The notes beneath the pieces were generated by a model. It saw only the letters and a program-made list of their open reading frames with translations, was not told the origin of the DNA and made no database searches. From Escherichia phage dhaeg, in sequence record MN850609.1: 64,000 nt of DNA; one strand, written 5' to 3'. The position numbers were made by a program, and so were the translations under genes. Of the stretch, positions 30,614-62,566 are shown one piece after another. The stretch's first letter is position 1; every line of letters begins with the position of its first letter.

Positions 30614-30644
30614 GTTTTACAAAGGGCTTTAGTGATGATACTAT
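30614..30644 (+). promoter_or_regulatory. T4-type early promoter cassette (GTTTTACA ... TGATGATACTAT)
   Basis: -35-like and extended -10 elements followed by AGGCCTATCAAAAAC leader. Confidence 0.7.
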
Positions 30645-30682
30645 AGGCCTATCAAAAACAAACTAACCAAATGGAAATCAAA

Positions 30683-30961
30683 ATGAAAACTTATCAAGAA
30701 TTTAGTAAATCCCAAAAAGTGGCTCCTATCACTGAAGCCAGTGTTATGAGTGAAGTTATAGCCCTAAACAAAGGCCGTGAAGGTAAACCGGTTATCGGTC
30801 TTAATGGTGATGAACTTAAAGGTACTGTTTATCTGGGCGACGGTTACCATGCTAAAAAAGACGGTGGGAGCATTGTTATTTCCCCGGCTCAAGAATCTTC
30901 TGTAATGAAAACCGTTTACATCGCCACCAAGCACTTTGATATTTTGAAAAAAGCACTTTAA
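30683..30961 (+). CDS. internal-protein-like protein (capsid-targeting prefix MKTYQEF)
   Basis: 92 aa from the second ATG; starts MKTYQEFSKSQKVAPITE-A; occupies the ipI locus position of T4. Confidence 0.65.
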   Translation: MKTYQEFSKSQKVAPITEASVMSEVIALNKGREGKPVIGLNGDELKGTVYLGDGYHAKKDGGSIVISPAQESSVMKTVYIATKHFDILKKAL

Positions 30962-30965
30962 AGTT

Positions 30966-30995
30966 ATTTACAACGGGCTCTAGTGATGATACTAT
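30966..30995 (+). promoter_or_regulatory. T4-type early promoter cassette
   Basis: ATTTACAACGGGCTCTAGTGATGATACTAT, near-identical to 30614-30644. Confidence 0.7.
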
Positions 30996-31031
30996 AGCCC
31001 TATCAAAACAAATGAGTGATTGGAGAATAAA

Positions 31032-31217
31032 ATGAAACGTTGTGAATTAATTAGAAATGTTACTGCACTGGCCGCCGTTACTGCTTTTGGCTTTAGTATG
31101 TTTGCAGGATTCATGTTGGATTTGCTTACAACTTCCGAGAATATAATCTCTTTAGTAGTGGCATTCTTAATTGGTTCAATCTCTTTCGTTATGGATAAAA
31201 TCTCTAAAGGTGAGTAA
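31032..31217 (+). CDS. small membrane protein (2 predicted TM helices)
   Basis: 61 aa from the ATG preceded by GGAGAATAAA; hydrophobic stretches ALAAVTAFGFSMFAGFML and LVVAFLIGSISFV. Confidence 0.6.
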   Translation: MKRCELIRNVTALAAVTAFGFSMFAGFMLDLLTTSENIISLVVAFLIGSISFVMDKISKGE

Positions 31218-31218
31218 A

Positions 31219-31599
31219 ATGTATAAAGTGTATGCGGATTATCAAGCAAATCCATCTGAAAAACCAGATTGCCAAATTGGGTGGGCGCATGACACCCTGC
31301 TTGAAGCGGTAAATGAAGCACAGAAATTAGGATATAGTTATGTAGATATTGTTCAACCGGGTGGAACAGTTATTACTCTTGAAGAATTCAAGAATATCAA
31401 AACAAACTTTTTGCTCTTTGCCGGTGATAACTATTATCCTCGTGGCGGTTATGCTGACTTAATCGCAAAGGCCGCGACTGAAGATGAACTGCGCGATATC
31501 ATTAAAGAAAACGAGAATAAGCCTTGTTACGGTTCCAATCGTTTTGACTGGTGGCAGATTGTCAATGCCAATACCCACACTATTGTAGACGAGGGTTAA
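31219..31599 (+). CDS. hypothetical protein
   Basis: 126 aa from the ATG (GGTGAG SD) just after the upstream stop; no motif recognised. Confidence 0.55.
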   Translation: MYKVYADYQANPSEKPDCQIGWAHDTLLEAVNEAQKLGYSYVDIVQPGGTVITLEEFKNIKTNFLLFAGDNYYPRGGYADLIAKAATEDELRDIIKENENKPCYGSNRFDWWQIVNANTHTIVDEG

Positions 31600-31884
31600 A
31601 TGTTATACGTTAAGGTTACTAATCCAGAGAATGGCTATAAATCCGATCAGGTTGCAGCCGAGTTGTTGATTCGAAATTACGGCAAAGATGCCGTGCTTGA
31701 TGTTCAACAGGTTAATATTGGCCGTAGTTCAAGCGATGTTAAACTCAAAGTTAACAGCCATCGCTATAATTCTGTTAACTTTACTTTTTATACCGCAACT
31801 GAAAATGGATTGGTCGAATACGACATCTTTAAAAACCCTTTGAAGATTGCTTCTATTAAACTTGACTATATTAATATGCTTTAA
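31600..31884 (+). CDS. hypothetical protein
   Basis: 94 aa, TAAATG junction with the upstream ORF. Confidence 0.55.
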   Translation: MLYVKVTNPENGYKSDQVAAELLIRNYGKDAVLDVQQVNIGRSSSDVKLKVNSHRYNSVNFTFYTATENGLVEYDIFKNPLKIASIKLDYINML

Positions 31885-31901
31885 GAATTATGTGATATTA
31901 T
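31877..31901 (+). promoter_or_regulatory. candidate MotA-dependent middle promoter for the tRNA cluster
   Basis: TGCTTTA (MotA-box consensus) - 12 bp - TATTAT, 70 nt upstream of the first tRNA. Confidence 0.55.
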
Positions 31902-31969
31902 TACTCTATCATTAATACCCTCTATTACCAAAGGTTCTTCCCTCAAAGAGCCTTTCATAATAGAATTAA

Positions 31970-32043
31970 GGCCCTGTAGCTGGACGGTCAAGCGAGCGAC
32001 TCATAATCGCTGGATGGTGGTTCGATTCCACCCAGGGCCACCA
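31970..32043 (+). tRNA. tRNA with CAU anticodon (Met, or Ile if C34 is modified)
   Basis: Cloverleaf by hand: acceptor GGCCCTG/CAGGGCC, anticodon stem AGCGA/TCGCT, loop CTCATAA, T-arm GGTGG-TTCGATT-CCACC, encoded CCA. Confidence 0.9.
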
Positions 32044-32047
32044 ATTT

Positions 32048-32122
32048 GGATGTGTAGCTCAGTGGTAGAGCAGTTGACTGTTAATCAATTGGTCCATGGT
32101 TCGAATCCATGCATGTCCGCCA
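32048..32122 (+). tRNA. tRNA-Asn (GUU)
   Basis: Acceptor GGATGTG/CATGTCC (two G-U pairs), D-arm GCTC..GAGC, loop CTGTTAA, T-arm CATGG-TTCGAAT-CCATG, encoded CCA. Confidence 0.9.
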
Positions 32123-32126
32123 AATA

Positions 32127-32202
32127 CGAGGCATAGCTCAGAAGGAAGAGCAAGGACCTTCTAAGTCCTGGGTCGTAGGTTCGATCCCTACTGTCTCGAC
32201 CA
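32127..32202 (+). tRNA. tRNA-Arg (UCU)
   Basis: Acceptor CGAGGCA/TGTCTCG, D-arm GCTC..GAGC, anticodon stem AGGAC/GTCCT, loop CTTCTAA, T-arm GTAGG-TTCGATC-CCTAC, encoded CCA. Confidence 0.9.
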
Positions 32203-33120: not shown

Positions 33121-33149
33121 GTTTACACCTCCTTTAAACGTGATACTAT
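33121..33149 (+). promoter_or_regulatory. T4-type early promoter cassette
   Basis: GTTTAC-17 bp-TACTAT, then AGACCTATCAAAACAACAGAGTGAAGGAGAG leader. Confidence 0.75.
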
Positions 33150-33184
33150 AGACCTATCAAAACAACAGAGTGAAGGAGAGTAAA

Positions 33185-33450: not shown

Positions 33451-33480
33451 GTTTACACGGGCTCATGATTGAGATATTAT
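33451..33480 (+). promoter_or_regulatory. early promoter with stem-loop (GTTTAC ... TATTAT)
   Basis: Inverted repeat CGGGCTCAT (33458-33466) / ATGAGCCCG (33479-33487) spans the spacer and the -10. Confidence 0.65.
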
Positions 33481-33505
33481 GAGCCCGTAATTTGAGGAGA
33501 GCATA

Positions 33506-33904
33506 ATGAATATCGAAGATAAAGAAATGCAAGAGTTGTATAATTCATTAACGCCTGAACAACAAAAAGCTGCCAAAGAATTAGAGAAAGCTCTTACTTT
33601 CAGCTTGGCAAAAACTGATTGGGCCGCCATGTATGAAGAAAAAAGGAGATCGGAAATTGAAGCTGTCGAGAGAAATGAATGGATTGTAGAAACCAAGATT
33701 TCTGATGGTGGTTGCTCTGTTGAGGTGTCAGCTGTGGTTAAAGGTACTCATGGTGAAAAATCACTAGGTTGGCATAATGAGGCAAACAAATATATTGTTC
33801 TCTCAACGTCAAAAACTTATGGTCAAAGGGTTCCTGTATCCAAAGCTATTATTAAGCAAGCTCAATGGGAAGCCAATGAAATTTGCCTAGCAAAAATGAA
33901 ATAA
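33506..33904 (+). CDS. hypothetical protein
   Basis: 132 aa, GAGGAGAG SD; no motif recognised. Confidence 0.6.
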
Positions 33905-33907
33905 AAT

Positions 33908-33937
33908 GTTTACAACCCTCAGAGGACAGGGTATAAT
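33908..33937 (+). promoter_or_regulatory. early promoter with stem-loop (GTTTAC-18-TATAAT)
   Basis: GAGGACA (33922-33928) / TGTCCTC (33937-33943) bracket the -10. Confidence 0.65.
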
Positions 33938-33980
33938 GTCCTCATGGATTACAAAATATCAACCGACTGAAGGAAATACT

Positions 33981-34574
33981 ATGAACACTTTAAAGAAAAT
34001 CGTTGAATTCATCCGTTCTAAACTGGGTACCGCAATGACTCAGAACCTGTCAATCGAAGACCAGTATACTAAAGCTGCTTCTACCCTGATTGATAAAATT
34101 ACTGAACTCCAGACTGCTCATGTTAAGTCTGTGAATGAAGAAAAACGTATTCGCGAGTTAGCGAATGAAAAAGACCAACTCGCCGCTTCAAAAGAGCGTG
34201 AAATTCGTAAACTGATTAAAGAAGGCGCCGATGTCCAGGTGCATGCTAAACTTGGCCTCCTTTATCGTCGTACAGCTAATCAACTTCGTAAGAAAGCAGA
34301 CGATTATATCGAAATGCGTAATGAAATTAAACTGAAGGTCAAGGAACTTGATGACTCTCGTCAAGAACTGGCTGTTAAGCTCGAGTACATCCGTGAAACT
34401 CGTAATATGGCTGCCCTTGGTATTGCTACTGCCGATGATGTGGTTGAAATCGCTGCACTGACTAAGATTGATATTGAAGATACCCTGCTGCGTGTAGAAA
34501 CGTTTAAAGGCCCACAAGTTGGAATGGATACGACTTCAGCCGATATCGAAGACTACATTAATTCACTTAAGTAA
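33981..34574 (+). CDS. long coiled-coil protein, possibly PspA/IM30-like
   Basis: 197 aa from the ATG after the AAGGAAA SD (the track ORF start at 33906 would run through the promoter). N-terminal amphipathic helix [15 protein letters not shown], then an uninterrupted charged heptad-like sequence. Confidence 0.55.
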
Positions 34575-37344: not shown

Positions 37345-37674
37345 ATGCACAAAGATTCAGTATTCAAATATCTTTTGAAAACAGATAAAGAATTCTATAT
37401 GAATGGGCAAGCTTTCTTGTTCGTCCGTGGTAAACGTGAGATGTTTTATAAATGCGACCTCTCAATGCACCATCATATGTATCATACCCACGGCGAGCCT
37501 ATACTAGGGTTCTCTGGTGACGAGACTAGACACATAGCTATGTACTATGACCATTTTAAGCTCAATGATTGTGGTGACAACGCTTTGGTCTGGAACCCAT
37601 CTTGGAGACGTTGGGATACAGTAGACAGCGATAAATTATTTTTAGAATATTGCAGAAGTGATGTACAACTCTAA
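37345..37674 (+). CDS. hypothetical His-rich protein
   Basis: 109 aa from the ATG after AGGAGG; HHHMYHTHGEP cluster. Confidence 0.55.
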   Translation: MHKDSVFKYLLKTDKEFYMNGQAFLFVRGKREMFYKCDLSMHHHMYHTHGEPILGFSGDETRHIAMYYDHFKLNDCGDNALVWNPSWRRWDTVDSDKLFLEYCRSDVQL

Positions 37675-37690
37675 AAACTTGTGTTACTAT
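37662..37690 (+). promoter_or_regulatory. degenerate early promoter cassette (TGTACA-17-TACTAT)
   Basis: Resembles the 39134-39161 promoter; leader ACACAAACATGAGGGGAACATTATG resembles the 60288 leader. Confidence 0.45.
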
Positions 37691-37718
37691 TACCTTACAC
37701 AAACATGAGGGGAACATT

Positions 37719-37958
37719 ATGTGGTATTATTCTCCACTGTCTGATAAGTCTGATGAGCCGGTACGCATTAGTCGTGCCAAGTTTAAAAAGATTTATGGCT
37801 TTGCCTATAAGAAGTCTGATTACGGTGTTCGTTTTGAAGATGCCCACTGTATCAACGACCCTTATGCAGAAGAAATCTCTAATGAGATAATTCCTATCAT
37901 TAAGAATAATTCTGATGATATGTGGGAATTGCATAACGATTACGTTGCTGAAATTTAA
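37719..37958 (+). CDS. hypothetical protein
   Basis: 79 aa, GAGGGG SD. Confidence 0.55.
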   Translation: MWYYSPLSDKSDEPVRISRAKFKKIYGFAYKKSDYGVRFEDAHCINDPYAEEISNEIIPIIKNNSDDMWELHNDYVAEI

Positions 37959-37979
37959 GTTTACTCTGAGGAAAATATT

Positions 37980-38147
37980 ATGTATAATGTTCTTATTGTT
38001 TTTGTTACTCACCCACAAGGTGGCGTAAGGCAGAATACTTCCCAAGTGGTCCAATTTTCTTCACTAGAGGCTGCTAATCTAGCCGCAACGCGTATTGAAG
38101 CAAAAAAATCTGAACTGGGTAAATATGAAGTAACTCGTCTTTATTAA
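37980..38147 (+). CDS. small hypothetical protein (below the ORF-track cut-off)
   Basis: 55 aa MYNVLIVFVTHPQGG...; preceded by the recurrent TIR TGAGGAAAATATTATG. Confidence 0.5.
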   Translation: MYNVLIVFVTHPQGGVRQNTSQVVQFSSLEAANLAATRIEAKKSELGKYEVTRLY

Positions 38148-39120: not shown

Positions 39121-39133
39121 TTGCATAAAACAG

Positions 39134-39161
39134 TGTACAAGGTCTATAGGTGTGATACTAT
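39134..39161 (+). promoter_or_regulatory. early promoter cassette with stem-loop (GTGTAC ... TACTAT)
   Basis: Perfect 9-bp inverted repeat GGTCTATAG (39141-39149) / CTATAGACC (39158-39166) around the -10. Confidence 0.65.
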
Positions 39162-39198
39162 AGACCTATCAAAACAACAGAGTGAAATGGAGAATAAA

Positions 39199-39411
39199 AT
39201 GAAACTTTCTAACCAAGCAATCAACATGTTAAACGAAGTTCGTGCAGCTGGTGCTAAATGTCTGATGGTTAACACTCGTGACGGTGACCTTCGTCAAGCA
39301 TTTGGTGAATTGAAATCTGCTGACCTGGTTAAATGTTCGGTTGGTATCGGTAATGCACTTCGTGTATCCTTATCCCCTAAAGGTAAAATGTACTTTTTCA
39401 ACAAAAAGTAA
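39199..39411 (+). CDS. small hypothetical protein
   Basis: 70 aa from the ATG after GGAGAATAAA. Confidence 0.6.
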   Translation: MKLSNQAINMLNEVRAAGAKCLMVNTRDGDLRQAFGELKSADLVKCSVGIGNALRVSLSPKGKMYFFNKK

Positions 39412-39439
39412 TATACATTCTCGTAAGATATGTTATTAT
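39411..39439 (+). promoter_or_regulatory. early promoter cassette (weak -35 ATATAC, -10 TATTAT)
   Basis: TGTTATTATAGACCTATCAAAACAAATGAGTGAATTGGAGAATAAAATG matches the other cassettes. Confidence 0.5.
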
Positions 39440-39476
39440 AGACCTATCAAAACAAATGAGTGAATTGGAGAATAAA

Positions 39477-39707
39477 ATGAAAGCCATCATGAGTGTTTTA
39501 GCCCTGAGCTTGGTTGCTTTAGCTGCAGTTCCTTTTATTGTTGATGTTGGAGACGAAACACAAGTTGAATCCTCAATCGTTGTCAGTAAAGATGGTACAT
39601 CGGTTAAGATCGGTAATAATCTCCATATGAATCCTAATGGTACTTTAGGTGTTCAGCTCGGTAACACATGTGTAAGCACAACTGGTAAAGTTAATACTTG
39701 CTTCTGA
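39477..39707 (+). CDS. small secreted/periplasmic protein (signal peptide)
   Basis: 76 aa; MKAIMSVLALSLVALAAVPF hydrophobic N-terminus. Confidence 0.6.
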   Translation: MKAIMSVLALSLVALAAVPFIVDVGDETQVESSIVVSKDGTSVKIGNNLHMNPNGTLGVQLGNTCVSTTGKVNTCF

Positions 39708-41666: not shown

Positions 41667-41696
41667 TATAAATACCTCCTATAATCAGGAGGTATT
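41667..41696 (+). promoter_or_regulatory. late promoter TATAAATA plus SD-sequestering hairpin of gene e
   Basis: TATAAATA 41667-41674; perfect 10-bp stem AATACCTCCT (41671-41680) / AGGAGGTATT (41687-41696) ending at the ATG. Confidence 0.8.
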
Positions 41697-42185
41697 ATGG
41701 ATATTTTTGATATGTTACGTCAAGACGAAGGTCTTGATTTAAATCTTTATAAAGACACCGAAGGTTATTGGACTATTGGTATAGGCCAATTGATTACTAA
41801 GAACCCATCTAAAGATGTTGCTCGCGCTGAACTTGATAAGCTTATGGGTCGAGTTTGTAATGGTCGTATTACTATGGCTGAAGCCGAACAACTCTTTAAT
41901 CGTTCAGTAGAAAATGCCCGTAGAGCTATAACGCGCAATCCTAAATTGAAACCGGTTTATGATGTGCTAGACGAAGTTCGTCGTTGCGCATTGATTAATA
42001 TGGTCTTCCAAATGGGTGAAGCTGGTGTAGCGGGATTTACCAACTCTCTGCGTATGCTCCAACAAAAACGTTGGGATGACGCCGCAGTTAACCTGGCGCA
42101 GTCTCGTTGGTACAAGCAAACCCCTAATCGTGCCAAGCGTGTTATCGCCACCTTTAAAACAGGTACTTGGGCCGCTTATAGATAA
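41697..42185 (+). CDS. e: endolysin (T4 lysozyme)
   Basis: 162 aa; [28 protein letters not shown]...[52 protein letters not shown]. Confidence 0.97.
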
Positions 42186-42190
42186 AAGCA

Positions 42191-42219
42191 GTTTACATCT
42201 CCGGTAGGCATGATACTAT
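42191..42219 (+). promoter_or_regulatory. T4-type early promoter cassette (denV)
   Basis: GTTTAC-17-TACTAT; part of the 63-bp repeat 42185-42247. Confidence 0.75.
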
Positions 42220-42245
42220 AGACCTATCAACTACAGGAGATTAAA

Positions 42246-42662
42246 ATGACTCGTATCAACCTTACCTTAGTATCTGAATTGGCTGACCAACACTTAATGG
42301 CTGAATATCGTGAATTGCCACGTGTTTTCGGTGCAGTTCGAAAGCATGTTGCTAACGGTAAACGTGTTCGTGATTTTAAAATCAGCCCTACTTTTATCCT
42401 TGGTACAGGCCATGTCACATTCTTTTATGATAAGCTTGAATTTTTACGTAAGCGTCAAATCGAGCTTATAGCCGAATGTTTAAAACGTGGCTTTAATATC
42501 AAGGATACTACGGTCCAGGACATTAGTGATATTCCTCAGGAATTCCGTGGTGATTATGTTCTTCACGAAGCTTCTATCGCTATTTCACAAGCCCGTTTGG
42601 ATGAAAAAATTGCACAACGTCCTACCTGGTACAAACATTATGGTAAGGCGATTTATGCATAA
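42246..42662 (+). CDS. denV: endonuclease V (pyrimidine-dimer DNA glycosylase)
   Basis: 138 aa; [33 protein letters not shown] matches recalled T4 DenV (138 aa). Confidence 0.96.
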
Positions 42663-44320: not shown

Positions 44321-44349
44321 GTTTACATCTCCTGTAGACGTGGTACTAT
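44321..44349 (+). promoter_or_regulatory. T4-type early promoter cassette (regB)
   Basis: GTTTAC-17-TACTAT. Spacer ATCTCCTGTAG (44327-44337) is perfectly complementary to CTACAGGAGAT (44361-44371), which contains the regB SD. Confidence 0.75.
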
Positions 44350-44377
44350 AGACCTATCAACTACAGGAGATTACAAA

Positions 44378-44836
44378 ATGTCAGAAATTAATTCAGAAGT
44401 ATTCATCCGCCGCAACAAATTACGTCGTCAGTTCGAAACCGAATTTCGTGAACTTAACGCGTCCATCAAAAAAGCCGCCATTAAGAGCGGTGTCCCAGCT
44501 TTCTTTATTAAGTACTCTAATCACTTGTTGGACCGTGCTATCCAACGTGAAATTGACGAAAAATATGTTTTCTCTTTGTTCAAGAAGCTCCATAATCATG
44601 TTAAAGAAATCCATGAATTTTTAATCCAGGAGCCTCTTCCTGACATAGAATCTGAAATTGTCCCAGGTAAAGTGTATCGTCCACTGCGTCTCGAGATTAC
44701 CGATAAAACCTTATGGTTGGGTATGACCGTAGATCGTAAACATCCTGATAAAGGATATTCATTAAAATGTCGTATGGCATTTGTTAATTCTAAACGTTTA
44801 GAAGGTAAAACCAGCACGAAAGTAATCTATCTTTAA
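44378..44836 (+). CDS. regB: RegB site-specific endoribonuclease
   Basis: 152 aa; ...EVFIRRNKLRR.FE.EFR...HLLDRAIQREIDE.YVF.LF... matches recalled T4 RegB (153 aa). Confidence 0.93.
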   Translation: MSEINSEVFIRRNKLRRQFETEFRELNASIKKAAIKSGVPAFFIKYSNHLLDRAIQREIDEKYVFSLFKKLHNHVKEIHEFLIQEPLPDIESEIVPGKVYRPLRLEITDKTLWLGMTVDRKHPDKGYSLKCRMAFVNSKRLEGKTSTKVIYL

Positions 44837-48420: not shown

Positions 48421-48446
48421 GGTCTCACTTCGGTGGGACCTTTTTT
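48421..48446 (+). terminator. rho-independent terminator (UUCG loop)
   Basis: GGTCTCA-CTTCGG-TGGGACC-TTTTTT. Confidence 0.8.
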
Positions 48447-48455: not shown

Positions 48456-48484
48456 GTTTACATCCTCTAGGAACGTGATACTAT
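48456..48484 (+). promoter_or_regulatory. T4-type early promoter cassette
   Basis: GTTTAC-17-TACTAT + AGACCTATCAACTAATGAGGAGAATAAAATG. Confidence 0.75.
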
Positions 48485-48512
48485 AGACCTATCAACTAAT
48501 GAGGAGAATAAA

Positions 48513-51723: not shown

Positions 51724-51919
51724 AGAAGAAATCAAGGTTTTCCTGTCATATGGAAGACCTCATAAAACCTGTCGTTGGTATCTTGAAGTAGTTTGTAGAG
51801 AAACCGGTAGACGAATCAATTTCAAGTACGTATGCAAGCCTACGTCTAAGCAGATAAGACGGTGTATTAACTGGGCTATCAATAATATCCGCTTCCATAA
51901 TTATTGGAGCGCAATTTAG
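51695..51919 (+). CDS. possible small basic protein (non-ATG start, uncertain)
   Basis: 74-aa frame that fills the 196 nt up to the terminator but has only a TTG start and no clear SD. Confidence 0.3.
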   Translation: MTTTTLITAKEEIKVFLSYGRPHKTCRWYLEVVCRETGRRINFKYVCKPTSKQIRRCINWAINNIRFHNYWSAI

Positions 51920-51941
51920 GAACCTTCGGGTTCCTTTTTTT
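51919..51941 (+). terminator. rho-independent terminator (UUCG loop)
   Basis: GGAACC-TTCG-GGTTCC-TTTTTTT. Confidence 0.85.
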
Positions 51942-51960: not shown

Positions 51961-51989
51961 GTTTACAACCTAGTAGAGCATGTTATTAT
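51961..51989 (+). promoter_or_regulatory. T4-type early promoter cassette
   Basis: GTTTAC-17-TATTAT + GGACCTATCAAATCTACTGAGTGAAACGGAGAATATAATG. Confidence 0.7.
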
Positions 51990-52026
51990 GGACCTATCAA
52001 ATCTACTGAGTGAAACGGAGAATATA

Positions 52027-53007
52027 ATGTTAACTATCAAAATCAACAAAGGTATCTATCGAGGTAATGAAATCTCTGGTACGTTCATGAGTTCAGGTAA
52101 AACCTGGTTCCCTAATAAAATTCATGAATCCGAAGCTCACCTCGGTGACGGCAAGGTATTTGTACAGATTGATGGTGTTGAACGTGGTGTGTGGGTGTTC
52201 AAATGTGACATCGAAATGGAAGGTGCTGAAGCTCCTGCAATGGTCACCGAATCCGCTGAAGAAATGAAACACCGCATCAACAAACGTTTTAAAGTAATGA
52301 ACATGATGACTAACGGAATCATCGATGGTAAAATTCGTTCCCTTATCATCTCTGGTGCCGCAGGTATTGGTAAAACATACTCTTTGGATAAAGCATTACA
52401 AAATGCCCATGAAAATGAAACTATCGAATATAAATCAATCAACGGAAAGATTAGTGGAATCGGTCTTTACGAGCAGCTTTGGAATAACCGCGGCCCTAAT
52501 AGTGTTCTTCTTATTGATGATGTTGATGTATTCTCTGACATGGATATCCTGAACCTTCTGAAAGCCGCATTGGATACTGGTGAAAAACGTAAGGTGTGTT
52601 GGAGCACTTCAAGTTCTTACCTCGACGATAAAAATATCGATAAAGAATTCGAATACGAAGGCACCATCGTGTTCATCACCAACGTTGATATTGACCGTGA
52701 ATTAGAGCGTGGAACTAAACTTGCTCCACACCTCCAGGCTTTAGTATCTCGTTCCGTTTATCTCGACTTGGGTGTTCACTCAAACGAAGAGATTATGGTT
52801 CGGGTTGAAGACGTTATCCTGTCCACTGATATGATGCAAAACCGAGGTCTGACCGATGCCGAGACTTATCAAGCTTTAGCATGGATGAAGGCTAATGTAT
52901 CTCGTCTTCGTAACGTATCATTACGTACAGCTCTTTATCTGGCGGACTTCATTGCCACCGATAAAAATGACTGGAGCGAAATCGCTGAAGTTACACTTCT
53001 GAAATAA
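52027..53007 (+). CDS. AAA+ ATPase
   Basis: 326 aa from the ATG after GGAGAATATA; Walker A GAAGIGKTY, Walker B VLLIDDVD, sensor-like VFITN. Confidence 0.75.
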   Translation: MLTIKINKGIYRGNEISGTFMSSGKTWFPNKIHESEAHLGDGKVFVQIDGVERGVWVFKCDIEMEGAEAPAMVTESAEEMKHRINKRFKVMNMMTNGIIDGKIRSLIISGAAGIGKTYSLDKALQNAHENETIEYKSINGKISGIGLYEQLWNNRGPNSVLLIDDVDVFSDMDILNLLKAALDTGEKRKVCWSTSSSYLDDKNIDKEFEYEGTIVFITNVDIDRELERGTKLAPHLQALVSRSVYLDLGVHSNEEIMVRVEDVILSTDMMQNRGLTDAETYQALAWMKANVSRLRNVSLRTALYLADFIATDKNDWSEIAEVTLLK

Positions 53008-53361: not shown

Positions 53362-53390
53362 GTTTACATCTCCAGTAGAAATGATACTAT
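53362..53390 (+). promoter_or_regulatory. T4-type early promoter cassette
   Basis: GTTTAC-17-TACTAT + AGACCTATCAACTAATGGAGG. Confidence 0.75.
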
Positions 53391-53416
53391 AGACCTATCA
53401 ACTAATGGAGGTTATC

Positions 53417-53941
53417 ATGAACGCTAAAGATATTTTTTCACTGATTAATTTTAACAATGGTAATTTCAAATCTGAAAAACAAAGCAAGTTCTTTAACGAC
53501 GTTGCTTGTGGTAATGAGATTACCGTATCTGGAGGAGAGATTTACAAAAGCCGTTGGAACTGGATTGTTATCATCGATTCAGTTGGTATTGTAGAGCTCT
53601 ATAAAAACACTAACAAAAAACGTACTCTTCACTGGAGTCGTGAAACCAATCAAGCTTATCAAGCCGAGCGTAATAAACGTTTAATGCCTACTGAATCTGA
53701 CCTGGCAAACGTTAAATCAGATATCGCTTATTTTGATAACTTGATTGCCGAACAACAAGCGGTTATTGATAAGTTTGACGAAATCAAAGCTTGTAAAGAG
53801 ATTCCTGAATTTATGCGGGAATCAGTAAACGAACAGTATGCCCTCACTTCAGGTCGTATCGAGCAGTACAAATCACAACGAGCTGAACGCCAAGCTCTGC
53901 TTCAGAAATTTGAAGAGCGTTTAAAGACGGTTCTCGCATAA
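53417..53941 (+). CDS. variable-head / C-terminal coiled-coil protein 1
   Basis: 174 aa; C-terminal IAYFDNLIAEQQAVIDKFDEI...QRAERQALLQKFEERL. Confidence 0.6.
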   Translation: MNAKDIFSLINFNNGNFKSEKQSKFFNDVACGNEITVSGGEIYKSRWNWIVIIDSVGIVELYKNTNKKRTLHWSRETNQAYQAERNKRLMPTESDLANVKSDIAYFDNLIAEQQAVIDKFDEIKACKEIPEFMRESVNEQYALTSGRIEQYKSQRAERQALLQKFEERLKTVLA

Positions 53942-54852: not shown

Positions 54853-54933
54853 ATGGAATGGCTCGCTGTTCTTGGTTATGTAATCGTAGCCACGGGTGTT
54901 CTGTGGCTAATTTTCTCAAACATTATAGGTTAA
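54853..54933 (+). CDS. 26-aa hydrophobic micro-protein
   Basis: MEWLAVLGYVIVATGVLWLIFSNIIG; AAGGA SD. Confidence 0.4.
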   Translation: MEWLAVLGYVIVATGVLWLIFSNIIG

Positions 54934-56022: not shown

Positions 56023-56052
56023 GTTTACATCCAAGGACGGATGGAGTATAAT
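56023..56052 (+). promoter_or_regulatory. early promoter (GTTTAC-18-TATAAT)
   Basis: Followed by the leader ATCAACTACTGAGGAGAATATCATG. Confidence 0.7.
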
Positions 56053-56080
56053 CCTTTTATCAACTACTGAGGAGAATATC

Positions 56081-57091
56081 ATGACCCGTACTGAATACAT
56101 CAATGCCTTTACTACGTATATCACTGACAATACCCCTCCATTAACCCCATATGAGGTGATAGTTTCCAATATCAATAAATGGGTAGACCAAATTGATGAA
56201 GATTTGTCGCTGTATTTTAAATCTGAAATAGAAAAGATTGCAGGGCGTTTGTTTATCCCTGATATCATAGATACATTTAAAGGTTCTCGACTTCTTTCGC
56301 GGCTGGTTAATAAGGATATCCTTTCAGAGTTTGGCAAAGAGAAACACCCAGGTTCCAGCCACGTTGTTAGCTACCAATGGTTTGGTGATGTTTTAAAAAG
56401 CTATATCAAAATGAAAGGTATGGATCCTAGTGGTCTATTTCCACAGCGTTGGACTAGTGAATTTAAGGCTAACTCTGCATTAATTCTCAAAGCGGCCTCT
56501 AAAACCATAGTTTCTGGTGATTCCCGTACTATTCACCCTATGGCTAATTGCATGATTAAAACAAATAGTTATAAAGGAAAAGCAATTATTTCTGTTATTT
56601 GGTCACCTAATAGGAAACCTAAAGATGACGCGGAAGTTGTAAAGTATCAAGATATTGCTTACGACACCTTGAATATTATCGAACAAGCCTTAGCTTTTAT
56701 GGATACAGTAGAGAAATATGAGACTCAAGAAGTAAAACATTTCTATGGCTGGAAAGGATACGAGGTCTTAGTAAAAGTTCGCGAAATCAAATGCCATGTT
56801 CCAAAAACTGACGCTGAAATTTACCAAGAAAAATGTGAGGAAATTGTGAACACTGATAAAGAGCCTGCTACATTAGAAGACTTGATTAACGACTTGAATA
56901 GCCCTATCATGGCTCCTACACCAATTACTAAATCCAAGTTACCGGAAATCGTTGCCTTAGAAAAAGCGTATAAAGATGCCCTTGCTATTAACAAAAAACT
57001 GACTGGCCAATATACCGCTGCCAAGAAACTTTGGGAAGAGTCTACCAATCGTTTAGACCGTCTTGAACAAGCTCTGGAGCTGTTGAAATGA
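56081..57091 (+). CDS. variable-head / C-terminal coiled-coil protein 4
   Basis: 336 aa from the ATG after GAGGAG; C-terminal [44 protein letters not shown]. Confidence 0.6.
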   Translation: MTRTEYINAFTTYITDNTPPLTPYEVIVSNINKWVDQIDEDLSLYFKSEIEKIAGRLFIPDIIDTFKGSRLLSRLVNKDILSEFGKEKHPGSSHVVSYQWFGDVLKSYIKMKGMDPSGLFPQRWTSEFKANSALILKAASKTIVSGDSRTIHPMANCMIKTNSYKGKAIISVIWSPNRKPKDDAEVVKYQDIAYDTLNIIEQALAFMDTVEKYETQEVKHFYGWKGYEVLVKVREIKCHVPKTDAEIYQEKCEEIVNTDKEPATLEDLINDLNSPIMAPTPITKSKLPEIVALEKAYKDALAINKKLTGQYTAAKKLWEESTNRLDRLEQALELLK

Positions 57092-58312: not shown

Positions 58313-58342
58313 GTTTACAACGATTCCGAAATAGAGTATAAT
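58313..58342 (+). promoter_or_regulatory. early promoter (GTTTAC-18-TATAAT)
   Basis: Preceded by hairpin GCTCGGT-GGGAAACT-ACCGAGC at 58279-58300. Confidence 0.65.
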
Positions 58343-58382
58343 GAACCTTCAAACAATGATTTAATCGATATGGAGTTTGGAT

Positions 58383-58556
58383 ATGAGTACCAAAATTGAA
58401 GTTGGCCGTCACAAAGGCCGTCTGATTGAGCATTCGCTTTACGAGTTGTCGGATTCGGGTTCTTTACCTGACCTAGAATCCGATTTGATTAAAGCTGCTG
58501 CTGACTATATCCATTGGCTTGAAGCTCAACTTCGCTTTGCTGATAAGGCGTTCTGA
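58383..58556 (+). CDS. small hypothetical protein
   Basis: 57 aa, GGAG SD. Confidence 0.5.
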   Translation: MSTKIEVGRHKGRLIEHSLYELSDSGSLPDLESDLIKAAADYIHWLEAQLRFADKAF

Positions 58557-58636: not shown

Positions 58637-58809
58637 AAACTAAATTAGTCTATACTGAAAAGTTAAATGGTGACAAGGTCTGGAAACTTCTTATCAAAGG
58701 AAGTCCTACCGACCAGTTTATGGCCACCTGTATAGGGTTGTATACCCGTCCTACCAAAAAGATGATTCGTCAATTTAAACGGTTGCATCGCTCATTTTAT
58801 AATGTTTAA
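58633..58809 (+). CDS. small basic protein
   Basis: 58 aa. Confidence 0.5.
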   Translation: MKTKLVYTEKLNGDKVWKLLIKGSPTDQFMATCIGLYTRPTKKMIRQFKRLHRSFYNV

Positions 58810-58844
58810 TAAATACCCTTATCTAATAATGGTAAGGGTTTATT

Positions 58845-59318
58845 ATGTTGCTGACTGGCAAATTATACAAAGAAGAAAAACAAAATCTTTATGATGCACA
58901 ACATGGTAAGTGTTTGATTTGTAAACGTGAATTAAACCCTGATGTTCAAAGTAACCACCTTGACCACGACCATGAATTGAATGGGCCAAAAGCCGGTAAG
59001 GTTCGTGGTTTACTATGTAATCTGTGCAATGCTGCAGAAGGACAAATGAAGCATAAGTTCAACCGTTCTGGTTTGAAAGGTCAAAACGTTGACTACCTCG
59101 AATGGTTAGAGAATTTGCTGGTCTATCTGAAAGCTGATTATACCGAAAATAATATCCATCCTAATTTCGTTCCTGATAAAACCAAAGAGTTCAGTAGATT
59201 AGGTAAGGAAGAAATGATTGCTGAAATGCTTTCACATGGAATGACTTATAATGAATCTGACACAAAGAAACAAATGGTCGATTCATTTAAAAAACAACTG
59301 AGGAAATCGCTTAAATGA
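58845..59318 (+). CDS. 49: recombination endonuclease VII (Holliday junction resolvase)
   Basis: 157 aa; MLLTGKLYKEEKQ..YDAQ.GKCLIC.RELNPDVQ.NHLDHDHELNGPKAGKVRGLLCNLCNAAEGQMKHKF, near-identical to recalled T4 gp49. Confidence 0.97.
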   Translation: MLLTGKLYKEEKQNLYDAQHGKCLICKRELNPDVQSNHLDHDHELNGPKAGKVRGLLCNLCNAAEGQMKHKFNRSGLKGQNVDYLEWLENLLVYLKADYTENNIHPNFVPDKTKEFSRLGKEEMIAEMLSHGMTYNESDTKKQMVDSFKKQLRKSLK

Positions 59319-60247: not shown

Positions 60248-60276
60248 GTTTACTTCCTCTCCTCACGTGTTATAGT
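60248..60276 (+). promoter_or_regulatory. early promoter cassette (GTTTAC-17-TATAGT)
   Basis: Spacer CTCCTCACGTGT (60259-60270) is complementary to ACACATGAGGAG (60288-60299, contains the SD), with 1 mismatch. Confidence 0.7.
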
Positions 60277-60305
60277 CTATCCTATCAACACATGAGGAGA
60301 ACATT

Positions 60306-60482
60306 ATGACTATCCAAGATAAAGAAATTAAAGTCCACCAGTATTATTCAATCAACGGCAAAGCTGTTCTAGTAACTGAAATATCTAGCCTGGACGTGTG
60401 GTATACCATAATTGACCTTAATATTAAAATGATTTGTGACCGTGGTGTATTTTGTTCGATAGCTAAGGAAATTAAATTATGA
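60306..60482 (+). CDS. small hypothetical protein
   Basis: 58 aa after the GAGGAGAACATT SD. Confidence 0.5.
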   Translation: MTIQDKEIKVHQYYSINGKAVLVTEISSLDVWYTIIDLNIKMICDRGVFCSIAKEIKL

Positions 60483-60733: not shown

Positions 60734-60735
60734 CT

Positions 60736-61029
60736 ATGGGTAAAACTATCCGTCGTAAAGAATTGCCTGTAAAAGATTTTTATTATTCCGGACGCCGTAA
60801 AGCACCATACGGCGTAAGTCAGGAAAGAGTTGAAGAAAATATCTTCCGTTCTGACAAGTGGAAACGTATGCGTGGCGTTGATTCTGAAGTTAAGAATGAA
60901 ATGAACCGCCAACTTCGTAAAGAAGTAAGAAAACTGAAAAAAGATGTTTACAGCGACGATGAACCTGATTACAATACTTCTCATCGAGTTGCAAAACGTA
61001 AATCAAACGAATGCTATCGTTACAGCTGA
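60736..61029 (+). CDS. basic hypothetical protein
   Basis: 97 aa, K/R-rich. Confidence 0.55.
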   Translation: MGKTIRRKELPVKDFYYSGRRKAPYGVSQERVEENIFRSDKWKRMRGVDSEVKNEMNRQLRKEVRKLKKDVYSDDEPDYNTSHRVAKRKSNECYRYS

Positions 61030-61036
61030 GGAAAAT

Positions 61037-61168
61037 ATGAATATCAAACGTATGCTTTTTAAACAAGGATTATACACTTTAAATGTTGCTCCAAAAGGCG
61101 ATACGACTAAGTGGTCAGTAAATGACTGGATTGAATTTATTGATGAAAACGGTAACTGGAAAATTTAA
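61037..61168 (+). CDS. 43-aa small protein
   Basis: ATG after TGAGGAAAAT. Confidence 0.45.
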   Translation: MNIKRMLFKQGLYTLNVAPKGDTTKWSVNDWIEFIDENGNWKI

Positions 61169-61369
61169 ATGAATCCTGAATCTAAATTATCACAACGAAT
61201 TGCTGAAGCCCGTCGTCAGTTCTTTGAAAATATGATAGCCCAAGGTATTGATGACGAAGTTTTTCTAAACTGGTTTTGGAATAACAAATATTCAAAATGC
61301 TCAGGAGCAATATTGATATCAGCCGCGATGATGTATGAAGGCTGGAAAGGCGCCAAAGCACAAAAATAG
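61169..61369 (+). CDS. hypothetical protein
   Basis: 66 aa, TAAATG junction. Confidence 0.5.
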   Translation: MNPESKLSQRIAEARRQFFENMIAQGIDDEVFLNWFWNNKYSKCSGAILISAAMMYEGWKGAKAQK

Positions 61370-61398
61370 TTTACAAACTCTTGGGACCAGAGTATAAT
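61369..61398 (+). promoter_or_regulatory. early promoter with stem-loop (GTTTAC-18-TATAAT)
   Basis: TGGGACC (61382-61388) / GGTCCCA (61399-61405) bracket the -10. Confidence 0.65.
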
Positions 61399-61437
61399 GG
61401 TCCCACGGATTATAAATTTTAAACTGAGGAAATTATT

Positions 61438-61767
61438 ATGTCACAAGCTATTAAAAACGTACTGAACTCTTTCGCTTTCGATAAAGTTAACGAACTGATG
61501 AAAACCGGCTTTGTAACTCCTCAGGTTCTTGACCAATGGGTTGCTGAACTGTTACCAATCATGCACTCTAAAGACCAAAAAATTGGTAAGAACGGTATTC
61601 GTGAAATCCTGGTTCAATATATTCTCGACGAGTTTGATGTGGCCGCCTTTGGTGTCGAATCTAAAGCTTGGCAGCCGGGTGAAATCACAGACAAAACCAT
61701 CCGTCGTATGAAGAATCAACGTAAGAAAAAATTCGTTGACCTGAAAATTGTTAAGGCTGCTAAATGA
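61438..61767 (+). CDS. hypothetical protein
   Basis: 109 aa; the TIR ACTGAGGAAATTATTATG is identical to that of 54005. Confidence 0.6.
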   Translation: MSQAIKNVLNSFAFDKVNELMKTGFVTPQVLDQWVAELLPIMHSKDQKIGKNGIREILVQYILDEFDVAAFGVESKAWQPGEITDKTIRRMKNQRKKKFVDLKIVKAAK

Positions 61768-62012
61768 GTAATTTGCCTGAAGATGTATCGGTTATAATAG
61801 TCCTTAAAGCTTTAGCCGGTTTCCAACGTACCCCTATGATGAATAATAGCGAAACTATTATAAAAGCGGCTAATATGTTAAGTGGAAGTCATCGCGATTT
61901 CAGGATATTTCCTATAAGCTCTAAGACCACTTATATGAAAATGCCCGATCCTAAAATAGCTTGGGACGAAGGCATGACATTAAATGAATTTGAGGATTAT
62001 TTAAATGATTAA
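61764..62012 (+). CDS. hypothetical protein
   Basis: 82 aa. Confidence 0.5.
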   Translation: MSNLPEDVSVIIVLKALAGFQRTPMMNNSETIIKAANMLSGSHRDFRIFPISSKTTYMKMPDPKIAWDEGMTLNEFEDYLND

Positions 62013-62271
62013 AATAAAACTCTCTAATTACGATAAAAACTTGGAAATGATTGCTATGAAAGAAGAACTCCTGAATGATGTCCGCTTTACTGGTTATGCA
62101 GTTCAATTTAATAGTGATGGGGTTCTCCAGATTGAGGGTGACCACTTTATTATTGAATATGAATTTAAACAGTACTGGCTATACGCTAAAGATGAGGTCG
62201 GCGGTATTGATTACGTTGATGAGTTTGATAATCTTGATGATGCACTAGAAGGAGCCCGATTCCTACAATGA
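62005..62271 (+). CDS. hypothetical protein
   Basis: 88 aa. Confidence 0.5.
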   Translation: MIKIKLSNYDKNLEMIAMKEELLNDVRFTGYAVQFNSDGVLQIEGDHFIIEYEFKQYWLYAKDEVGGIDYVDEFDNLDDALEGARFLQ

Positions 62272-62531
62272 CGCCTGTATCCATAACATTAGCTTATGAA
62301 GGCTTAGGATTTTTCTTAATAGATAACTATATGAATGTTGAGTTTATTTGCGGAGAGACTTCTGAAGTGTGGAAGTCTCATATTTCCAAATACAACCAAT
62401 CCGAATATTTAGTCCTTTACCAACAATTCTGCCTTTATATTCAAAGCCAAGGATTTGAAGGAGCCCCTTCCTTCGAAGAGTTCAAAAAAATTCTTGAAAC
62501 AGTATTTCAGGCTTATTGCTTACTCCGTTGA
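62268..62531 (+). CDS. hypothetical protein
   Basis: 87 aa. Confidence 0.5.
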   Translation: MTPVSITLAYEGLGFFLIDNYMNVEFICGETSEVWKSHISKYNQSEYLVLYQQFCLYIQSQGFEGAPSFEEFKKILETVFQAYCLLR

Positions 62532-62566
62532 TGCTTTAAACGGGTCTTCAAATACTATGATATAAT
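62532..62566 (+). promoter_or_regulatory. promoter region of gene 55 (MotA-box TGCTTTA plus cassette-type -10 TATAAT)
   Basis: TGCTTTA 62532-62538; 12 bp later AATACT; cassette-like TGATATAATAGACCTATGA with TATAAT at 62561-66. Which -10 is used cannot be decided from sequence. Confidence 0.5.

Follow-up and report, generated by a model that had tools for sequence, protein, structure and literature searches.

Early-promoter spacers complementary to their own downstream sequence in a Dhakavirus, and the hairpins they may form in read-through RNA

The -35/-10 spacers of the early promoters of Escherichia phage dhaeg (MN850609.1) are complementary to the downstream sequence of their own cassette and not to that of other cassettes. 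The arms of these stems exist, are partner-specific, covary and favour folding of the sense strand. We consider it fairly probable (about 0.6 for the reading as a whole) that they form a spacer-leader hairpin in read-through RNA, in two regimes, one masking the SD (regime A) and the other bracketing the -10 element (regime B).

The window, i.e. the whole stretch of 64,000 nucleotides analysed, comes from a Dhakavirus, a JS98/JS10-like relative of T4. From 30.6 to 61.4 kb its + strand has 17 early-promoter cassettes. In each, a strong sigma-70 early promoter as known from T-even-type phages is followed by a short leader, an SD that also serves as a RegB/S1 site, and a start codon. The T4 early consensus of Liebig and Rueger (1989) reportedly has an extended UP/-35/TGn/-10 form, GTTTAC...TAnnnT. 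The motif GTTTAC-N16-19-TANNNT has 15 matches in the window against 3.4 expected, 14 of them on the + strand at 33-61 kb. A stricter finder, which needs a -35, -10, SD and ATG followed by an ORF, yields the 17 cassettes; their -35 hexamers lie at 30616, 30967, 33122, 33452, 33909, 37662, 39134, 39412 and 42192 (cassettes 1-9) and 44322, 48457, 51962, 53363, 56024, 58314, 60249 and 61370 (cassettes 10-17). Low-scoring matches aside, neither the - strand nor the first 30 kb of the window has a full cassette. The same finder also returns one dubious intragenic site at 60947.

The sequence-only reading had counted at least 16 copies and listed 18, and 17 of these are retained. The site at 62532 was rejected as an early cassette; it has TGCTT (a MotA box; consensus from PMC2988021), lacks a -35 and lies ahead of gene 55, and is therefore a middle-type promoter outside the set. 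The block AGACCTATCAA, said to occur in at least 12 copies, is exact in 7 cassettes and present with at most one mismatch in 10, the core TATCAA alone reaching at least 12. Nor would it be mainly an initial transcribed block as had been supposed, since transcription would start 7 nt after the -10, making most of it (AGACCT) untranscribed discriminator between -10 and +1. The features are as follows.

30615-30685, + strand: early cassette at the ipI position; -35 TTTACA, -10 TACTAT, leader and ATG at 30683, then an ORF; weak stem around the -10 (9 bp including 2 mismatches).
30966-31034, + strand: early cassette ahead of trna.4; -10-bracketing stem 30975-30984 GGGCTCTAGT / 30991-31000 ACTATAGCCC; leader terminating in GGAGAATAAAATG, the RegB/S1 consensus (PMC1702504).
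33121-33187, + strand: SD-masking early cassette; spacer 33129-33134 CTCCTT / 33173-33178 AAGGAG; predicted SD accessibility 0.00 in read-through RNA vs 0.91 in the local transcript.
33451-33508, + strand: -10-bracketing early cassette; stem 33458-33466 / 33479-33487, reaching 12 Watson-Crick pairs and one G·T when extended; -21.5 kcal/mol, z -5; the T4 counterpart, ahead of e.7, has ATAGGCT../..AGCCTAT, a double compensatory change.
33908-33983, + strand: -10-bracketing early cassette ahead of e.6; stem 33922-33928 GAGGACA / 33937-33943 TGTCCTC.
37661-37721, + strand: early cassette with -35 TGTACA; 6-bp stem only, no excess folding energy (z +0.3).
39133-39201, + strand: -10-bracketing early cassette; stem 39140-39149 AGGTCTATAG / 39158-39167 CTATAGACCT (10/10).
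39411-39479, + strand: early cassette with weak SD masking; spacer 39417-39422 ATTCTC / 39468-39473 GAGAAT.
42191-42248, + strand: denV early cassette, SD-masking; stem 42197-42207 ATCTCCGGTAG / 42231-42241 CTACAGGAGAT (10/11).
44321-44380, + strand: regB early cassette, SD-masking; stem 44327-44337 ATCTCCTGTAG / 44361-44371 CTACAGGAGAT (11/11); read-through segment -18.3 kcal/mol, z -3.3, local transcript only -1.4.
48456-48515, + strand: early cassette with weak SD pairing TCCTC/GAGGA; canonical intrinsic terminator (48418-48443) immediately 5'.
51961-52029, + strand: nrdC.10 early cassette; weak 6-bp stem AGTAGA/TCTACT from spacer to leader, stopping short of the SD; terminator upstream at 51918-51935.
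53362-53419, + strand: nrdC.8 early cassette, SD-masking; stem 53368-53378 ATCTCCAGTAG / 53402-53412 CTAATGGAGGT; predicted SD accessibility 0.01 vs 0.67; T4 nrdC.8 has a different masking stem, of 13 bp.
56023-56083, + strand: nrdC.4 early cassette; 5-bp TCCTT/GAGGA only, joining -10/discriminator to SD.
58313-58385, + strand: early cassette at the pin position; no stem, z +1.4.
60248-60308, + strand: 55.6 early cassette, SD-masking; stem 60258-60271 TCTCCTCACGTGTT / 60287-60300 AACACATGAGGAGA (13/14); -21.6 kcal/mol, z -5.4.
61369-61440, + strand: 55.2 early cassette, -10-bracketing; stem 61382-61389 TGGGACCA / 61398-61405 TGGTCCCA.
62532-62600, + strand: MotA-box middle-type promoter of gene 55, not a member of the set; followed by the remnant TATAATAGACCTAT.

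Six of these stems had been quoted before, and manual inspection of the sequence confirmed their coordinates and complementarity. Read-through segments of the 17 cassettes have a mean MFE z-score of -1.5. Native 5' and 3' halves fold at -13.05 kcal/mol as against -9.66 for swapped partners, and the native value is reached by 0/20000 permutations; the corresponding energies in T4 are -14.16 and -8.96 kcal/mol (0/20000), RB69 likewise gives 0/20000, and 76 pooled non-redundant cassettes give a partner specificity of z = -14. Folding favours the sense over the antisense RNA by 1.28 kcal/mol (p = 0.001), as compared to 0.02 in shuffles, and the mismatches inside stems are G·T in 10 cases vs A·C in 4. 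Local leaders are nearly unstructured (0 to -2.3 kcal/mol), and whole read-through segments with masking stems fold at -18 and -22 kcal/mol. In length these masking stems equal or exceed the hairpins of gene e (10-bp stem) and gene 49 (9-bp stem) that the window itself carries. A stem of 6 bp or more is missing from 3/17 cassettes, those with -35 at 37662 and 51962 have a 6-bp stem only, and cassettes without a convincing stem number 3-4. As a pyrimidine-rich spacer start (TCTCC) is common among the cassettes, part of the SD complementarity could be compositional; the inner, non-SD portions of the stems covary.

It had been claimed that the spacer of every cassette is complementary to the SD or brackets the -10, which is true of 5-7 and 6 of the 17, respectively, but not of the remainder. 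Regime A comprises 33121, 42191 (denV), 44321 (regB), 53362 (nrdC.8) and 60248 (55.6), and weakly 39411 and 48456. In regime B (30615, 30966, 33451, 33908, 39133 and 61369) the stem ends at +1 and leaves the SD open. Folding of read-through and local RNAs in silico, as the sequence-only reading had advised, put the SD accessibility of the SD-masking cassettes at a predicted 0.00-0.25 for read-through RNA vs 0.49-0.91 for the local transcript; once the flanks were lengthened to 120 nt on the upstream side and 45 nt of the coding region, the values were 0.00-0.17 vs 0.14-0.44, a smaller contrast since the local SDs are then partly paired too. When own and foreign spacers were compared in 62 cassettes, the SD was far less open with its own spacer in 9 (p = 0.004) and far more open in 11 (p = 0.0002), with about 3.1 expected per tail. 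Averaged over all cassettes, the SD was not less accessible with its own than with a foreign spacer (0.46 vs 0.42), so masking is a property of a subset. The suggestion that the read-through arm hides the SD thus stands, as predicted accessibility, for about a third of the cassettes and not for the family as a whole; in the -10-bracketing cassettes the SD is more open with the native hairpin than with foreign spacers, and there the inference fails.

The regB promoter was followed through 32 distinct sequences (45 IMG/VR loci plus T4, RB69 and the window), of which 24 have a masked SD, with at least 10 different arm sequences. For 17 representatives, the MFE was -17.9 vs -10.7 for chimeras (0/100000) and SD accessibility 0.14 vs 0.28 (1/100000). 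In a fixed register anchored at the -35 and GGAG, the covariation score was 0.306, as compared to 0.159 for shuffles (0/500) and 0.08-0.20 for slid registers, with 37 double-change cells vs 17.5. Covariation of the arms among relatives, named earlier as a check on the hairpins, is thus present at regB above both controls. The regB lineages come from seven genera, and masking was found in six of these, Marfavirus having a -10-bracketing stem instead. The denV SD is masked in the window, T4 and RB69, and the arms differ.

GGAG, the RegB target, is present in 13/17 SDs, in agreement with the remark that most SDs contain it, and the common leader end GGAGAATAAAATG matches the T4 RegB/S1 consensus GGAGAAUAAAA (PMC1702504). 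Five leaders end in GGAGAAT followed by an A-rich stretch, four of them being the exact consensus GGAGAATAAAA. In T4, the SD of regB is itself a RegB target (PMC1702504). RegB is inhibited by secondary structure (PMC3014915, PMC1702504), and according to Durand et al. it may cleave nascent RNA ahead of structure formation (PMC1702504).

These features suggest how the cassettes may work. The -35/-10 spacer, being largely free to vary, may have been shaped into the complement of sequence further downstream in its own cassette. With just three canonical terminators on the + strand of the 34 kb, read-through is to be expected. A transcript from an upstream promoter would hold both arms and fold, and one begun at the local promoter would remain open, since the 5' arm lies inside the spacer and is absent from it. 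In regime A the 3' arm is the leader and SD, so that at that gene read-through RNA would escape both translation and RegB cleavage, and synthesis of the promoter-proximal protein would be tied to the short period in which the gene's own early promoter is active; more speculatively, the untranslated RNA may also be prone to Rho-dependent polarity. In regime B the 3' arm is the -10/discriminator/+1 segment, the hairpin stopping at the start of the local transcript with the SD free. Translation control does not account for regime B, which is most likely a PeSL-type attenuator/insulator or a 3' stabiliser of the upstream message. The start sites, folding in vivo and the effects on translation, RegB cleavage and termination are our inference.

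An alternative that we regard as unlikely is that the stems act purely as PeSL do (Arbiol 2010), as terminators or attenuators of upstream transcription and as recombination linkers, SD involvement being incidental. In phi1, one PeSL stem-loop placed ahead of lacZ in a transcriptional fusion reduced its expression to the same extent as rrnB T1 did (PMC2839356), and regime B stems do not reach the SD. Compared with JS10, the window has an additional unit of cassette and ORF (39412-39705), which fits precisely between a stop codon and the SD after it, and lacks a 1.1-kb stretch with ipIII, the denV -35/arm segment GTTTACATCTCC being the junction. Whether cassettes flank indels had been put forward as a check; these two indels involve cassettes directly and 8/14 touch one, but with about 41% expected from gene boundaries (a rough estimate) the association is not clearly above them. 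Against this explanation, no cassette stem is followed by a U-run or was picked up by a terminator scan that does detect the canonical terminators just 5' of two cassettes; the masking at regB, partner-specific in its accessibility, is hard to see as incidental; and RB49, the original PeSL genome, masks the SD in 0/12 cassettes, so the T-even masking stems are something additional. That the inverted repeats act at the DNA level, as cruciforms or single-strand hairpins serving recombination, replication or promoter-DNA modulation independently of RNA, is improbable. Inverted repeats are inherently symmetric in DNA, some indel junctions coincide with cassettes, and PeSL mini-circles arise by recombination between such elements (PMC2839356); the indel count, however, carries the same caveat here, the sense-strand bias and the excess of G·T over A·C are at odds with a pure DNA palindrome, which should be strand-symmetric, and the arms differ among cassettes, leaving no common protein operator. 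The loops of regime A are 18-25 nt long, and stems with such loops extrude poorly as cruciforms.

Translational coupling, in which a ribosome ending the upstream ORF would open the hairpin so that the downstream gene is translated in step and not silenced, appears quite improbable. In 13/17 cassettes the end of the upstream stop and the -35 are no more than about 14 nt apart (the stop ends between 14 nt into the cassette and 12 nt ahead of it; the exceptions are 33122, 48457, 51962 and 58314), and the masking arms begin 10-11 nt past the stop. In toeprints the leading edge of a terminating ribosome lies about 9-10 nt after the stop codon; the arms would thus be just beyond its footprint, and stems of 11-15 bp would stay unmelted from there. 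That the complementarity has no function and simply follows from base composition and the recurring promoter consensus is very improbable and is already disfavoured by the permutation and covariation tests: the region has no more generic sigma-70-like matches than shuffles do and several cassettes have common arms through paralogy, but partner permutation preserves consensus and composition and regB covariation exceeds its controls.

In comparison with known systems, T4-type early promoters have the same GTTTAC(A/T) -35, TG-extended -10, conserved +1 region (ATCAA) and position directly 5' of early genes (PMC2988021). The T4 denV cassette is almost identical to that of the window, whose set is the Dhakavirus version (TACTATAGACCTATCAA) and otherwise differs in nothing essential. 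The accessible T4 early-promoter reviews speak of 'additional regions of consensus' and leave spacer/leader complementarity unmentioned. The known RegB/S1 targets GGAGAAUAAAA (PMC1702504) correspond to the GGAG-bearing SDs of the window, and the RegB/S1 papers do not make the link proposed here, that GGAG would be open in local and paired in read-through transcripts. As T-even early promoters, the cassettes belong to the published PeSL type, a resemblance rightly pointed out in the sequence-only reading (PMC2839356, PMC4122927). The PeSL of phi1/RB49, PST/T4 and nt-1/KVP40 likewise have a strong early promoter, stem-loop, SD and ATG, lie between genes of hyperplastic regions and have copies at indel junctions, and those with stems between -35 and -10 or over the -10 are like regime B. 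The PST/T4 stems, unlike those of the window, are described immediately 5' of the promoter, whereas those of regime A run across the -10 and +1, end in the SD and fall outside the five published PeSL positions; neither paper mentions translation or SD masking.

A mechanistic parallel is that of T4 e, soc, 49, I-TevI, segB and mobE, where a long transcript conceals the SD, as proposed here, and a proximal promoter inside the hairpin gives a transcript without the 5' arm, as in regime A; this logic, cited earlier as established for e and 49, is confirmed by reviews (PMC3014915, PMC2988022). Known cases of such sequestration 'are all late genes' (PMC2988022), and in the accessible literature SD masking with an internal promoter is described for late promoters only; we found no experimental report of it at T4 early promoters. 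In regime A the internal promoter is an early sigma-70 one whose -35/-10 spacer supplies the 5' arm, and the predicted timing is reversed, with expression limited to the earliest minutes and not delayed until late. SD masking by an early-promoter spacer would thus be the e/49/I-TevI logic placed at an early promoter, probably a new form of this known mechanism.

Sequence comparison matched the 30-64 kb part of the window to Dhakavirus phages (dhabil, 98.5%; IME08, 91%; also JS10), and synteny with JS10, an annotated relative, gave the gene order gene 57B, tRNA cluster, e, denV, regB, tk, nrdC.x genes, 49 and gene 55. In a T4-like genome this is the early, hyperplastic region, which here lies on the + strand. 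The motif GTTTAC-N16-19-TANNNT was matched 15 times against 3.4 expected, 14 of the matches being on the + strand at 33-61 kb, and a stricter finder that demanded -35, -10, Shine-Dalgarno (SD) sequence, ATG and ORF together yielded 17 cassettes, named here by start coordinate, and one dubious intragenic site; by these criteria the - strand held no comparable cassettes. A generic sigma-70 scan gave no enrichment over shuffles, the T-even-specific consensus alone being enriched, and an Rfam scan of the window returned three tRNAs only and no family at the cassettes. The cassettes occupy the region from the tRNA cluster to gene 55, which holds many hypothetical ORFs; they are intergenic, and the SD and ATG at their 3' end belong to a small ORF. 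Thirteen of the 17 have an upstream stop codon whose end is ~14 nt or less from the -35 (between 14 nt inside the cassette and 12 nt ahead of it); at 33122, 48457, 51962 and 58314 it lies farther away.

The cassettes are the sigma-70 early promoters of T-even phages, with a -35 GTTTAC(A/T), a 16-17 bp spacer often with TG, a -10 TAnnnT and placement on the early-gene strand, and their alignment shows no variation at T, A and C in the -35 or at TA...T in the -10. The sequence-only reading had described a conserved initial transcribed block in at least 12 copies; this holds for the core TATCAA, found 3' of the -10 in 12 cassettes, but not for the full block AGACCTATCAA, which is exact in 7 and has no more than one mismatch in 10. 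The 7th position after the -10 is a conserved A (ATCAA), which fits an early start ~7 nt past the -10; given such a start, the transcripts are predicted to begin at this A, and the block would then be mostly discriminator rather than transcribed sequence. The six stems quoted in that reading were all recovered on the sequence, in position and in complementarity, and its copy at 62532 was dropped from the set, as it has no -35, carries a TGCTT MotA box (consensus from PMC2988021) ~30 nt upstream of TACTAT, precedes gene 55 and so is a middle-type promoter. The features of the window are these:

30615, 30966, 33451, 33908, 39133 and 61369, + strand: cassettes with a -10-bracketing stem, the spacer pairing with the -10, discriminator and +1
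33121, 42191 (denV), 44321 (regB), 53362 (nrdC.8) and 60248 (55.6), + strand: cassettes with an SD-masking stem, the spacer pairing with leader and SD
39411 and 48456, + strand: cassettes with weak SD masking
51961, + strand: cassette with a weak stem only
37661, 56023 and 58313, + strand: cassettes with nothing convincing
31970-32202: three-tRNA cluster (Met, Asn, Arg), likewise in JS10
37960-37988: good early-promoter match (GTTTACT...TATAAT), a candidate promoter whose spacer holds the SD and ATG of a 55-codon ORF (37980-38147)
41668-41700: start region of e (lysozyme), with late promoter TATAAATA followed directly by ACCTCC...GGAGGT, and a 10-bp stem that hides the SD as in the T4 design
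48418-48443, 51918-51935 and 54887-54909, + strand: canonical intrinsic terminators
58800-58850: start region of gene 49, with a 9-bp stem (58815-58839, ACCCTTATC.../...GGTAAGGGT) covering the SD as in the T4 gene 49 design, and a late-promoter-like TAATAAATA just upstream
62532-62600: promoter before gene 55, in which a MotA box replaces the -35, yet TATAATAGACCTAT is present and resembles a remnant early-promoter core

RNA starting at the -35 and reaching slightly beyond the ATG folded better than dinucleotide shuffles (mean z -1.5 over the 17 cassettes), with single values of -5 for 33451 and 60248 and -3 for regB, and a Watson-Crick-seeded stem of at least 6 bp was present in 12 of the 17; the predicted local leaders are nearly unstructured (0 to -2.3 kcal/mol). 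In a partner-swap test the cassettes were cut at the start of the -10 and their 5' and 3' halves recombined, which preserves consensus and composition. Native cassettes of the window averaged -13.05 kcal/mol, a value reached by none of 20000 permutations, and swapped ones -9.66; the corresponding values in T4 were -14.16 and -8.96 kcal/mol (0/20000), RB69 likewise gave 0/20000, and 76 pooled non-redundant cassettes gave z = -14. By these permutations, the complementarity between spacer and downstream sequence is real and cassette-specific, and T-even phages in general have it, T4 included.

The -35/-10 spacer houses the 5' arm, so that any plausible start lies 20 nt or more downstream of it; a local transcript begun at the cassette promoter lacks this arm, and both arms are present only in read-through RNA from an upstream promoter. 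The inference of the sequence-only reading, that the 5' arm hides the SD in read-through transcripts, stands for about one third of the cassettes, strongly for regB and denV, and its title generalises too far. The SD is paired in predicted read-through RNA for 5-7 cassettes (accessibility 0.00-0.25) and not in the other 10-12, and at the masking cassettes its predicted accessibility is 0.00-0.31 in read-through RNA against 0.30-0.91 in the local transcript. With 120 nt upstream and 45 nt of coding sequence added, masked SDs remained masked (0.00-0.17), and the SD of the local transcript was less open (0.14-0.44), so the predicted contrast becomes smaller. The -10-bracketing stems end a few nucleotides from the predicted start site and leave the SD free. 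When own and foreign spacers were compared in 62 cassettes of several phages, the SD was far less open with its own spacer in 9 (p = 0.004) and far more open in 11 (p = 0.0002), with ~3.1 expected per tail, and the mean over all cassettes did not differ (own 0.46, foreign 0.42). This mean rules out SD masking as a universal cassette property and makes it that of a subset. In RB69 (L021, reverse-strand 3204, 3557, 10762, 12057 and 22327) five early promoters carry a near-identical -10-bracketing stem, GATAGGACTA / TAGTCCTATC, and the whole promoter-plus-stem module is therefore repeated in that genome.

Covariation of the arms across relatives, on which the earlier proposal had been staked beforehand, was found at regB. 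The promoters of 45 IMG/VR loci, T4, RB69 and the window gave 32 distinct sequences, and the SD was masked in 24 of these through many different arms: ATCTCCTGTAG/CTACAGGAGAT in Dhakavirus, TTTTCCTCTTGACTG/CAGTTAAGAGGAGAA in T4, TTCTCCTCTAGTTG/CAACTAGAGGAGAA in RB69, TTTCTCCTCTTTATG/CATAAAGAGGAGAAA in STML-198, and further ATCTCCTTTTAGT/ACTAAAAGGAGAT and ATCCTCATTTG/CAAATGAGGAT. CC31 and KPV15 have both an outer SD stem and an inner -10 stem, the latter with a compensatory change of its own (AGGGCTAT/ATAGCCCT vs GGGCCAT/ATGGCCC). The lineages cover Dhaka-, Tequatro-, Mosig-, Karam-, Gelderland-, Jiaoda- and Marfavirus, the last with a -10-bracketing stem in place of SD masking. For 17 representatives, native sequences had a minimum free energy of -17.9 against -10.7 for chimeras (0/100000) and a predicted SD accessibility of 0.14 against 0.28 (1/100000). 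MAFFT with RNAalifold on full-length regB and denV cassettes gave a weak consensus (-4.1 kcal/mol) owing to register shifts, and partner swapping and a fixed-register alignment were used instead, the latter ungapped and anchored on the -35 and last GGAG only, so that its register is independent of pairing. In this alignment 65% of cells were paired (55% in shuffles), both sides had changed in 37 cells (17.5 in shuffles), and the covariation score was 0.306 against 0.159 in shuffles (0/500) and 0.08-0.20 in slid registers. The denV SD is masked in the window, T4 and RB69 by arms that differ. RB49 regB has no promoter at all, just a 4-nt gap to the upstream gene.

The same arms might serve as a DNA site, a terminator or a coupling device. 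A palindromic operator shared by the cassettes for a repressor or other protein is ruled out, as the arms vary in sequence among cassettes. The evidence leans, though not decisively, towards selection acting on the sense-strand RNA: its folding is 1.28 kcal/mol stronger than that of the antisense strand (Wilcoxon p = 0.001; shuffles differ by 0.02), and the single internal mismatches in Watson-Crick-seeded stems include 10 G·T against 4 A·C. No U-run stands behind any cassette stem and a terminator scan of the window detected none of the stems. The three canonical terminators are the only ones on the + strand in 34 kb, and read-through into most cassettes is therefore expected; in T4, downstream genes are reached via extension of early transcripts (PMC2988021). 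Two of the three terminators lie directly upstream of cassettes with weak stems only. That stems are weaker behind true terminators holds for these two cases, and 76 cassettes showed no trend (4 with a terminator, p = 0.5). The masking arm starts 10-11 nt past the upstream stop codon; a ribosome terminating there would fall just short of the arm, and simple translational coupling with the upstream ORF is thus less likely.

The arms exist, are specific to their partners, covary and favour the sense strand, and a mechanism may be proposed for them in which RNA from upstream promoters would fold. At the masking cassettes this fold would keep both the 30S subunit and RegB from the promoter-proximal gene, with Rho polarity as a possible consequence, while a -10-bracketing stem would act as insulator, attenuator or 3' stabiliser with the SD kept free. 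Secondary structure inhibits RegB, and the common leader end GGAGAATAAAATG is identical to the RegB/S1 consensus, GGAGAAUAAAA (PMC1702504, PMC3014915), so the choice of transcripts that RegB cuts should depend on the stems as well. In its broadest form, to which we give a probability of roughly 0.4, the early-promoter spacer across Tevenvirinae, T4 included, would be a second code layer that sets translation and RegB cutting on RNA from upstream, both being forbidden at regB and denV and the SD being kept free by -10-bracketing stems elsewhere. If true, each early gene would have a promoter-of-origin switch, with a testable rule for confining proteins such as RNase RegB to the first minutes of infection; it would explain dosage insulation along very strong promoter arrays and the sparing of longer transcripts by RegB, and could be part of the reason why identical GGAG sites are sensitive to RegB in early and resistant in middle transcripts. 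Overall, the original observation is confirmed with corrections and its interpretation is partly supported, and strongly so at regB and denV. The early gene expression of T4 has been under study for sixty years. A promoter spacer, commonly regarded as unconstrained, can carry information at the RNA level. The masking model is directly testable in T4.

The likeness to the promoter-early stem-loop (PeSL) cassettes, pointed out in the sequence-only reading, was borne out, as promoter, stem-loop, SD, ATG and location in hyperplastic regions all match (PMC2839356, PMC4122927). In evolution too they may behave like PeSL cassettes, some window cassettes lying at indels relative to JS10. A cassette with a 76-codon ORF (39412-39705), spanning exactly from the preceding ORF's stop codon to the next gene's SD, is present in the window and not in JS10, and a 1.1-kb ipIII segment of JS10 (18887-20001; ipIII and a neighbouring ORF, between e and denV) is missing from the window. 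Its junction (42190-42202) falls inside GTTTACATCTCC of the denV cassette, common to two promoter cassettes, and the loss looks like a cassette-to-cassette deletion. The proposed flanking of indels is clear at these two sites; of all 14 indels that separate the window from JS10, 8 touch a cassette, not clearly more than the ~41% that we roughly estimate from gene boundaries alone. Annotation gains ~17 promoters and leaders marked amid unnamed ORFs, and cassette-mediated indels. In the PeSL papers the stems are taken to terminate or attenuate transcription, and translation goes unmentioned (PMC2839356, PMC4122927), and the published termination test covers one phi1 stem only (PMC2839356). In RB49, the original PeSL genome, the SD is masked in 0 of 12 cassettes, unlike the masking subset of the window; its stems (L022, 1-33000, reverse strand) are mostly GGGG...CCCC hairpins entirely within the spacer.

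The accessible literature yielded neither a map of T4 transcription starts or termination sites nor an earlier mention of spacer/SD pairing, though a prior description may exist, and in accessible reviews hairpins hiding the ribosome-binding site are described for late genes only (PMC3014915, PMC2988022). In T4 e, soc, 49, I-TevI and others the SD is hidden in long transcripts and the proximal promoter lies inside the hairpin (PMC3014915), and the known cases 'are all late genes' according to one review (PMC2988022); the window's own e and 49 hairpins served as internal controls. Those cases pair a late promoter (TATAAATA, gp55) with a late gene, whereas the masking cassettes have sigma-70 early promoters and early genes (regB, denV, nrdC.8, 55.6) and are for this reason a variant of the type, not strict members. 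The logic is that of e and 49, but the early-promoter spacer provides the 5' arm and the timing is expected to be opposite, expression being limited to the period in which the local early promoter fires.
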